A stretch of DNA of 64,000 nucleotides from Leucoraja erinacea (lineage: Eukaryota), in contig NC_073384.1 in NCBI RefSeq assembly GCF_028641065.1, forward strand, positions 65,906,001 through 65,970,000. Reading direction: 5' to 3'. Below the pieces are notes generated by a model. The model ran no database searches. It was given only the letters and a program-made list of their open reading frames with translations, and was not told the origin of the DNA. Position 1 is the first letter of the stretch, and each line of letters opens with the position of its first letter. A program made the translations under genes and the position numbers. This document shows positions 10,451-48,400 of the stretch, one piece after another.

Positions 10451-10842
10451 ATCCACATCTCTTTGTTACGCATTATTATGTGGGATGTCCTGCATGTGCA
10501 TTATGAGCCAGTGGCCATCCATATACAATCTGAGAAAGGCCAACGCACAATGTCGGGAGTCAGTGTTGGAAGCCCTTGATCCAGTGCTGCAAGGAATTCA
10601 ATGAGCAGTGAAATCATTGTCAACCCCATCTCCTACAAATGTACCAATAACCTCAAGCACGAATCAATTCATGACATCATATTACTGAGTTGCCAACAAT
10701 CCCCATGGAAGGACACCTACCGTATATTCATATGGTCTTTCTTGTCCTCACACATCAGCACTAATGCAGGTATATCACTTACACACAACACACAACCCTA
10801 GCTATTCAATCATGACTATCGCAGGATTGAAACACATTGCAC

Positions 10843-10896
10843 GGGGTGGGAGATTGCAACCTTCACTTGGTCCGCCCTGTTTCGACGAATGCAATC
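10843..10896 (+). ncRNA. Minimal HDV-like self-cleaving ribozyme
   Basis: P1 GGGGUGG/CCGCCCU, P2 GAUUGCA/UGCAAUC, P3 ACC/GGU, L3 UUCACUU, mini-P4 U-UUCG-A, J4/2 CGAA. Confidence 0.85.
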
Positions 10897-10988
10897 CACC
10901 TCGTGTGCACAATCAAGTAAGATCAAATAGAACAAGTTGTCCTACAACGTTAGGCTGTGCACGCCATACGCAAGAAGAAGAAGAAGAA
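10843..10988 (+). mobile_element. 146-bp non-autonomous retroposon with ribozyme head and (AAG)n tail
   Basis: 14-bp TSD GAAACACATTGCAC at 10829-10842 and 10989-11002; ends GCCATACGC(AAG)n. Confidence 0.9.
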
Positions 10989-11219
10989 GAAACACATTGC
11001 ACAAGACTCAAAGGCACATTTCCCTGTTACATGCATAAGAAGGAACTGAAGAAGGTGAGAACCAACTCATAATCCACAGCCTCATTTCCCTCACATCCCC
11101 CATTTTGCTCATCCTATTGCCTCTTCATTGATAACTGTGAATGATGCATGTGTGGATCACATATTCTCATCTTCCCTTATCGCAGCTCAACCCTTGTGAT
11201 GTATTTCCTTTCAGATTGA

Positions 11220-39555: not shown

Positions 39556-39700
39556 TTACTAATTCAGTAATAAGAGTGGAGTCATAAAACTTGATATATT
39601 TCAAATGATAATGATGCATTTCAACTCTGCATTTTTTCAGTATATCAATGTTAGCTATGTCTTAGGTATGATTGATACAAATACATCGATAGATGCTCCT

Positions 39701-39775
39701 AAACAGATCATCAGTGATGTAACCTGGGGTCATTGGGTGTTTCGGGTCTTTCAACATCAGACACCCTCACCCAGG
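39701..39775 (-). ncRNA. Rearranged (non-circularly permuted) hammerhead ribozyme motif
   Basis: GGGUGUC^UGAUGU-UGAAA-GACCC-GAAACACCC ... ACAUCA-CUGAUGA; stems I and III perfect, stem II weak in this copy. Confidence 0.7.
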
Positions 39776-40405
39776 CGACTCAAGCCGTGGTTGATTAGAC
39801 CATGACTTGGGTTCAGGTGGCATTTGCTCCTGCCCATGGACCTCCTCTCCTGATCCAGAGCCATCTCGAGGCCTTCTCCGCTGCCTCGGTGATGTTCTTC
39901 ATGGCCCTTCTCCTCTCCCTTCCGTTGATGCCCAGTGCACTCAAGGCTTTGGAGAGCGACTGCCCTGCAAAACCTCTGCGGCCAACCTCGATGGGCATAC
40001 ACCTCGCCTTCCAGCCCTGCTTACGGCAGTCTATGACCAGCTCTTCATATCTGGTCATCTTCCTCTCGTGGGCCTCCTCCAGACGGTCCTCCCACGACAC
40101 TGTCAGTTCCAACAAGACAATGTTTTGGTGACCTCTGAGACCAGGGGGATATCTGGCCTCAGGGTGGTCGTGGAAATGTGCTGTGGGAACCTCAGCTGTT
40201 TCACCAGGTCTACAGAAAGCTGCCAGTCCTGCGCAGTCGCCAGGATTCCTGACGGATTCCTGGCTGCTGTGGTTCTTGGCAGCTGCACTGCGGCCTTCAC
40301 GAAGGTGATCATCTGGGTGGTGGGGCGGTCTCGTCTACAGCTGCTGATTCCAATGCTGATGGCTTCTGCAATGGGTTTGAGAACATGGTCGCGACGCCAT
40401 GGGTA
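39708..40405 (-). mobile_element. HERO-like non-LTR retrotransposon 3' part (restriction-like endonuclease)
   Basis: WRRDHVL, LRPDI, ELTVSWEDRLEEAHERK, IEVGRRGF, AEKASRWLW motifs; frameshifted. Confidence 0.85.
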
Positions 40406-47649: not shown

Positions 47650-48400
47650 ACTGAGGAAATTCTGTATGTTGACAAAAACTCTCTTGAACGTAGCTCGAAT
47701 GCCCAGGAACGAAGAGGATTGCACCAAGTGATGAACGCTGCCCAGTCTATCACATATACTGATCTCCTTGCCACCGGAGGCATCTACTGGAGTTGCTGCT
47801 TCAATAGGGGCAGCTGGCATCATCAGGGTCCCACACCACCTTGGCCACGCTCCCATTTCACTCCTGTCATCAGGAAGATGGCCTGAAAACTGTACCATCC
47901 AGGTTTAGGAGCAGCTTCTTCAGAACAACCATCAGGCTATTAAACAATACAAACTTCAAATAAACTCCACGCTACGAACTGCCTCCATTGCACTACTTGC
48001 TTTATAATAATTGCTTTATAATAATAAAATTATTTGTATAGCACATTTTTAGTCAACTTGCATTGACCCCAAAGTGCTTCACATAATTACATTACATTTA
48101 CACACAAGCAAAGGTGGGTGAAGTGTCTTGCCCCAAGGACACAATGACAGTATGCACTCCAAGCAGGATTCGAACCGGCTACCTTCCGGTCGCCAGCCGA
48201 ACACTTAGCCCATTGCGCCATCTGTCGTCCCGCACTATATTGCACTATATTGGTCATTATTGTTATATCTTGAACTTTCTTTTGTTGTCACTATGGTGTC
48301 TATTGTGCACTATGTTTACATATATGTTGTACTGCAACAAGTGAGAATGCCATTGTTCCATTTCGGGACATATAACAATAAAACACTCTTGAACCTCTTG
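47650..48400 (+). mobile_element. Rex1 3' fragment interrupted by a SINE
   Basis: Degenerate C-terminal DNA and CATTGTTCC..ACAATAAAACACTCTTG tail. Confidence 0.65.
48013..48231 (-). mobile_element. tRNA-derived SINE with L2-type tail
   Basis: A box TGGCGCAATGG, B box GGTTCGAATCC; tail AAGCACTTTGGGGTCAA..TGTGCTATACAAATAA(TTA)n. Confidence 0.85.

Follow-up and report, generated by a model that had tools for sequence, protein, structure and literature searches.

A miniature internal-deletion derivative of a Vingi-like LINE, headed by a predicted P4-less HDV-like ribozyme

The 64,000-nucleotide stretch of DNA analysed in this work (the window) contains a short retroposon copy on the plus strand, bracketed by a direct repeat at 10829..10842 (left TSD) and 10989..11002 (right TSD). 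The coordinates assigned to this copy in the original prediction (10829-11002) all agree with the sequence, and two of its measurements were adjusted. The direct repeat is present, but the first 3 nt (GAA) of the proposed 14-bp TSD, which overlap the tail repeat, can also be read as tail, leaving a TSD of 11-14 bp and perhaps of 11 bp; the proposed length of 146 bp stands as a minimum, the element measuring 146-149 bp because those 3 nt read as tail and the TSDs of its family are mostly 11-12 bp long. From 5' to 3', the element comprises an HDV-like fold without P4 (10843..10896), predicted to self-cleave and corresponding to nt 1-54 of the partner LINE described below; the remaining retained LINE 5' UTR (element positions 55-77, 10897..10919), with a stem arm GTGCACA at 10905-11; a junction segment that marks the main short subfamily (10920..10936); a LINE 3' end (10937..10971) with the last ORF codons, a TAG at 10951-53, 3' UTR and a stem arm TGTGCAC at 10956-62; and an (AAG)n tail (10972..10988, possibly to 10991). 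A CCUA/UAGG hairpin had also been proposed, in place of which MFE folding favours GUUGU/ACAAC.

The first base of the element coincides with G1 of the HDV-like fold, as had been predicted, and G1 is the common 5' start across the family. P1 (10843-49/10872-78, G1-U included), P2 (10852-58/10890-96) and P3 (ACC/GGT, 10859-61/10869-71) form with P1.1 a nested double pseudoknot that places G1 at the predicted cleavage site. P1.1 consists of one Watson-Crick pair, C22-G37 (10864/10879), plus a possible U-U, and P4 is absent, solely a UUCGA loop (10881-85) lying between G37-U38 and C44, in agreement with the definition of minimal HDV-like ribozymes as lacking P4 (PMC10879173). J4/2 spans 10886-89 and includes the predicted catalytic cytosine, C44 (10886), the counterpart of C75 in HDV and C57 in CPEB3. 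L3 (10862-68) was correctly given as UUCACUU for the window copy; the family carries G at position 25 in 62 of 73 copies.

The claim that this head is a complete minimal HDV-like ribozyme holds for the fold and, at the family level, for the core, where U20.G25 and the C and A of J4/2 are found (C44 in 70/75 copies), but not for the window copy itself, in which a G25->U change (T at 10867) removes the U20.G25 reverse wobble and distinguishes it from the natural copy L002. This wobble positions the catalytic Mg2+ (PMC4836649); the equivalent change at U23/U28 slows the antigenomic HDV ribozyme 290-fold (PMC3386971, Table 1), and in a nematode HDV ribozyme activity is strongly reduced by G25A (PMC13635239). 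Our fold descriptor, built from general HDV rules, passes L002 and fails the window copy because position 25 is T and not G. Furthermore, A55C and G60C (relative to L002) turn 10896-10902 into a perfect 7-bp decoy partner for G1-G7, and the MFE fold of the window copy picks this decoy pairing with the 5' strand of P1. Given G25U and the decoy P1 helix, we expect the window copy to cleave poorly and to be largely disabled. The suggestion that it might cleave a host pre-mRNA is accordingly left without support at this locus, where both changes are predicted to be crippling and no host gene was identified. Three of the five differences from L002 (10867, 10897 and 10902) are each predicted to impede the ribozyme, which could be due to chance or to silencing by host selection.

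The occurrence of the fold is beyond chance, as the HDV descriptor in its strict form did not match anywhere in 1.92 Mb of shuffled window (0 hits). Rfam returned no ribozyme match over the window at the gathering score and only three chance sRNA hits at E<=10, in a scan that covered the P4-less, G25U window copy alone; MFE folding, a method that cannot draw pseudoknots, was no better than shuffles (z -0.03).

A genome-wide search, which the original prediction had proposed, revealed a dispersed family in the element's own genome (G000, 2.19 Gb). The 146-mer yielded 1,206 first-look candidates, 40 of which were scored and proved 95-100% identical, 37 of them aligning from base 1, while exact matches to 25 nt of the tail, with a single flank letter constrained, numbered at least 1,766. 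A sample of copies was drawn from the first 90 of 100 listed tail matches, all on contig C1, with a bias towards younger copies inherent in the exact tail. Starts at G1 were expected by the original prediction, and 63 of these 90 copies begin at position 1-2; the other starts fall at 3-9 (10 copies), within 10-54 (4) and beyond 54 (11), and the last 2 sequences are LINE 3' ends. In only 20 of the 67 full-head copies are the 18 pairs and 7 core bases all intact; 38 preserve the core and have at most one broken pair. The commonest non-CpG variants of the head, at position 8 of J1/2, position 32 of P1 (U.G or U-A) and position 45 of J4/2, all fit the fold, most other variation being CpG decay. 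At L062, the G1 of a near-complete copy in inverted orientation directly adjoins the bare tail of another copy.

TSDs were found in 52 of the 67 full-head copies, with a length of 11-12 bp in 35 of the 52 and the repeat abutting G1 in 38; an overlap of 1-3 nt with the AAG tail was present in 40 of 41 scorable TSDs. The target profile (n=38) displays T at -14 and -13 in 19 and 17 copies, respectively, A at -12 and -11 in 17 and 16, and T as the last TSD base in 28, which suggests that both nicks tend to leave a 3' T. Capped L1 RNA templates leave an extra G at the 5' end. We found no hint of capped templates here, because G occupies -1 in just 3/67 copies.

The orthologous site was assessed in public data, where 15 listed runs from six organisms each contained over half of the sampled words, none being recorded as RNA. 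The site is empty in organism B, in which one public contig joins 10842 to sequence from 11003, and in organism E, in which a contig joins 10839 to 11000; 160 nt are absent in each case, and the left TSD sequence is present once at both empty sites. Organism F, almost identical to the window and possibly its very source, probably carries the insertion, although its bridging contig reaches just 28 nt into the element. Loose ends accumulate ahead of 10843 in each of the four runs. Run X16, flagged as probably DNA, left the unique flanks uncovered and is uninformative on expression or a host gene. With its many sites, TSDs, variable tail and an empty orthologous site, the element has been amplified as a unit by TPRT.

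Patterns that paired the head and tail with exclusions first returned only truncated, indel-bearing or interrupted short copies; the route to a parental LINE was provided by two short copies with inverted heads joined to ~400 nt of an ORF end plus the same tail. Used as a probe, this ORF end gave 609 candidates in G000, with 39 other scored matches 86-88% identical, and the 29 ORF-end matches fetched all carry the start of the tail, two lacking its distal part. L211 (C7:41979200-41986000) is a full-length, decayed LINE that starts at G1 of the same head, is flanked by its own TSD and encodes APE and RT with stops, frameshifts and insertions; L212 is similar, with a start near position 8. The head of L211 is 82% identical to the short element over positions 1-77 and its tail 95% identical over 103-139, the tails of L211 and L212 being 93-95% identical to the short element over about positions 100-144. 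The short element has lost the ORF, of which the stop codon survives at 10951-53.

Both ends of the element are therefore ends of the same LINE, as seen with L211 and L212, and because head and tail both come from one LINE the element is a SIDE, i.e., an internal-deletion derivative, a class that has already been described (PMC5786205, PMC3414825, PMC4035085). The original picture of a parasite that borrows a LINE is retained as to the Vingi/Ingi-type partner but not as to an independent origin with only the tail shared, since positions 1-77 of the head are the LINE's own 5' end. Likewise, the autonomous LINE with both ends that had been anticipated exists in L211 as a decayed copy, but none of the 51 listed matches was both full length and stop-free (45 candidates scored in a strict first look), and as no intact partner ORF was seen among the matches listed the family is probably dormant. 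Several short forms (L002, L085, L208, L094) differ in how much 5' UTR precedes the tail, an indication that internal deletion took place repeatedly or in steps; the form in the window keeps ~23 nt of 5' UTR past the fold, and for its ~17-nt junction (10920..10936) no convincing source was found in the LINE copies (best E 0.93).

The closest intact protein among 120 listed hits, P0001, is 72% identical over the RT piece and consists of a single 1019-aa ORF on a 3.3-kb contig. Of these 120, the 28 relatives that were scanned all contain APE and RT, and RNase H was found in none of them; a single ORF of ~1000 aa with APE and RT and no RNase H is the architecture of Vingi (PMC13708176, PMC3708506). 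None of the 120 protein hits was named Vingi or Ingi, and we use the label Vingi-like on the basis of architecture. A search of the PDB found no relative. P0001 lies on an ENA contig, and its 72% identity compares with <=59% for the other 119 listed hits; it may derive from a related host or from horizontal transfer.

Further observations concern the LINE copies of this genome. L130-L135, the top PF14529 families with (AAG)n ends, were rejected as partner on account of their two ORFs, RNase H and different 3' UTR; they make up two young families with open frames of up to 1268 aa, which we take to be Nimb/I-like, RNase H having been confirmed for L130. At L211:281-420 the endonuclease reading frame stays open upstream through the entire ribozyme. 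At the LINE 5' UTR loci L180-L209 of G000, the head is inverted relative to the ORF piece or tail just upstream in 19 of 30 loci, a twin-priming-like pattern that seems unusually common. The 5' and 3' UTRs of the LINE (both ends of L211) share an 8-nt inverted repeat, CGTGCACA/TGTGCACG (10905-10911 and 10956-10962 of the window), both arms of which are kept in the aligned short forms, with the stem extended to 10 bp in the main subfamily; this repeat may serve end-to-end pairing.

Covariation, another test named by the original prediction, was obtained between families (11 of 18 pairs) and not within the family, where no compensatory double change was seen in the sampled copies. In a second Vingi-like family of G000, represented by L148, a head of different sequence adopts this fold with P4 included, and the start lies at position 1-2 of that family's own fold in 20 of 26 matches. 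L148 and L307-L326 have a TAAA-type end, and internally deleted copies of their own (L310, L317, L319, L324, L326) were observed. Among 77 metagenomic loci, the first descriptor identified the fold in 1 of the 13 relatives with enough upstream sequence; relaxed after inspection of L394, the descriptor scored 3 hits across 315 kb per strand, each of them at the head of a LINE. The fold lies upstream of the endonuclease in L343 and L394, and inverted beside an RT match in L395.

Seven heads from five families, three of them from the window family, were aligned with MAFFT. In this alignment 95.1% of the cells assigned to helices are paired and both sides have changed in 11/18 pairs, values to be read as partly circular, given that pairing was itself a requirement of the descriptor used to choose the four heads from outside the family, and as drawn from only 7 rows; 0 of 500 shuffles reached the observed pairing or covariation score, and slid controls gave at most 48.8% paired and 2 pairs changed on both sides. 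No change is seen among the aligned heads at U20, C22, G37, C44 and A46/A47, and the window copy is the only one to have lost G25. An independent check was made on upstream stretches picked by protein, in which the relaxed descriptor found the fold in 1 of 4: in L411 it is complete, includes a P2 of 7 Watson-Crick bp and immediately precedes the ORF. L410 and L412 have P1, P3 and L3 by eye, yet failed the descriptor, and L413 has none of these. As an observation in its own right, L411 (G000:C8:43219800-43220900, minus strand) belongs to a third Vingi-like family, with L3 UUCACGU, J4/2 CGAA and an 8-bp P4. Taken together, this partly circular covariation between families and the fold at L411 support an HDV-like structure for these heads, as judged from alignment.

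With the integration of these findings, we consider the element a miniature derivative of a Vingi-like LINE in which an internal deletion joined the first 77 and the last ~40 bases, and whose P4-less HDV-like head likely freed the RNA at G1. On this account, transcription would begin at host promoters lying upstream or within the head itself. Read-through RNA would then cleave itself 5' of G1, by means of C44 and a Mg2+ held by U20.G25; the APE and RT protein would bind the 3' end in trans and copy through to the cut end. The target would be nicked first at a TT/AA-like site, synthesis being primed on the AAG tail, and again 11-12 nt away, usually following a T. Copies would decay neutrally after insertion. 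The heads of R2 SIDEs and of NARTco self-cleave in vitro (PMC3414825; PMC4035085).

The same origin could be combined with a head that acts mainly as an internal RNA polymerase II promoter starting at G1, cleavage being secondary or lost. A precise 5' start would equally follow from such a promoter; Pr77 of L1Tc/NARTc couples promoter and ribozyme in a sister clade (PMC4035085), bipartite LINEs are thought to be transcribed by Pol II from their 5' ends (PMC5786205), and the ~23 nt of 5' UTR kept past the fold could also be accommodated. We nevertheless regard this account as unlikely: between families the sequence turns over while the pairs and catalytic bases stay, which argues for selection on RNA catalysis and not on a DNA motif, and the rarity of G at -1 gives no sign of the extra G of capped RNA. 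A dual role as promoter and ribozyme is compatible with the preferred reading as well. Slightly less probable than a promoter is a structural cap, that is, a P4-less fold which shields the RNA from exonucleases or provides a protein-binding or translation signal, cleaves inefficiently and leaves host processing to set the 5' ends. Such a role would suit the loss of P4 and the single Watson-Crick pair of P1.1, and R2 ribozyme folds protect 5' ends and have been proposed as an aid to translation (PMC13708176, PMC6765202); the invariance of the core bases, with G25 kept outside the window copy, speaks against it, as do the in vitro cleavage of P4-less ribozymes (PMC10879173) and the compatibility of a weak second P1.1 pair with fast cleavage (PMC13635239).

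Two other accounts appear far more remote. A host role for the window copy, lying sense in an intron and cutting or tuning a pre-mRNA as proposed for CPEB3, would draw on the agreement in fold and numbering with that ribozyme (PMC4836649), and nothing direct speaks for it; it is very hard to reconcile with an insertion that is absent in two relatives, with G25U and the decoy P1, and with the failure to identify a host gene. Short length, a TSD and a microsatellite tail are also what would be expected of a classical SINE transcribed by Pol III, its head derived from a small RNA and only its tail acquired from a LINE, and we give this equally little credence, considering that the head is the LINE's own 5' end, with which L211 also starts. 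The original prediction had seen no Pol III boxes, and this was confirmed, as no A box was found in the element even with 2 mismatches allowed, nor any A-B pair, and neither a tRNA call at the site nor an Rfam match was obtained. The original label of promoter-less is at most provisional, the analogous L1Tc/NARTc head being ribozyme and internal promoter in one (PMC4035085).

Elements of comparable design are known from other hosts. The R2 SIDEs and R2/R1 SIDEs of Drosophila (Eickbush and Eickbush 2012, PMC3414825) likewise combine the parent's HDV-like 5' ribozyme with its 3' end, have an unexplained middle, are non-autonomous and are mobilised in trans. According to the same source, R2Dwi_SIDE measures 529 bp, resides only in 28S rDNA, has P4, depends on an RLE-type protein and has demonstrated cleavage, whereas the window family is 146-149 bp long, dispersed in at least 1,766 copies, devoid of P4, derived from an APE-type parent and only predicted to cleave. 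The trypanosomatid elements NARTc, NARTco, RIME and SIDERs, from L1Tc/ingi, are likewise short, dispersed derivatives of Ingi-group LINEs and also keep a head of ~77 nt with an HDV-like ribozyme; their parent has RNase H and the head has P4 and proven promoter activity (PMC4035085), in contrast to the parent without RNase H and the animal host of the window family. Vingi LINEs and Vingi-1_EE derivatives share the single ~1000-aa ORF with APE and RT and no RNase H, and many internal-deletion derivatives are reported, including those of hedgehog Vingi (PMC5786205, PMC3708506, PMC13708176, citing Kojima 2011), a likeness taken from published descriptions.

As regards the ribozyme itself, the minimal P4-less HDV-like or theta ribozymes have the same nested double pseudoknot with a short loop for P4; PMC10879173 reports them from metagenomes and gut phages, often beside tRNAs, and calls their origin and function otherwise open, whereas here the fold heads an animal retrotransposon. 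CPEB3 has the same bases at positions U20, U21, C22, A23, G25, U26, G37 and U38, and its P1.1 is likewise one G-C plus a U-U pair (PMC4836649); it is a single conserved intronic copy with P4, unlike the window element, a young repeat whose locus bears no mark of conservation.

Our literature search found no description of this family, which Repbase, Dfam, supplements, Kojima 2011 or Ruminski 2011 may already contain. The class of element is already known; what is distinctive is the P4-less head, the tiny size and the high dispersed copy number in an animal, together with alignment-based evidence that suggests ribozyme heads across Vingi-like LINEs. More tentatively, and with somewhat less than even confidence, we propose that Vingi-type LINEs are generally ribozyme-headed and that this family has shrunk to a 54-nt P4-less ribozyme plus a ~40-nt recognition tail, spread without a promoter of its own to thousands of sites in the genome of an animal. 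Should this hold, the element would be the smallest known ribozyme-headed retroposon and would give minimal HDV-like ribozymes a eukaryotic home and a function; RTE, Ingi, Vingi and R2, i.e., all LINE clades with known ORF-less bipartite derivatives, would carry 5' ribozymes; and sense-strand intronic copies would be predicted to be depleted or silenced. Kojima 2018 raised the question of why only these four clades yield such derivatives, ribozymes having been noted for three; the six Vingi-like head folds would fill this gap, making it testable that self-cleavage lets two-ended minimal elements propagate. Thousands of mutated copies permit a genome-wide test of selection against sense-strand intronic ribozymes. 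Vingi UTRs are in use as RNA templates for gene insertion (PMC13708176); the natural 146-nt unit indicates how little of both ends sufficed, and a 5' ribozyme may need to be accounted for in such templates.

Two other features of the window were recorded. A LINE 3' fragment with a restriction-like endonuclease motif lies on the minus strand at 39690-40400 and is presumably HERO-like; this RLE-type fragment (39.7-40.4 kb) was rejected as partner owing to its different 3' end. At 48154-48228, also on the minus strand, ARAGORN called a tRNA-Ala-like gene, which is possibly the head of a SINE.
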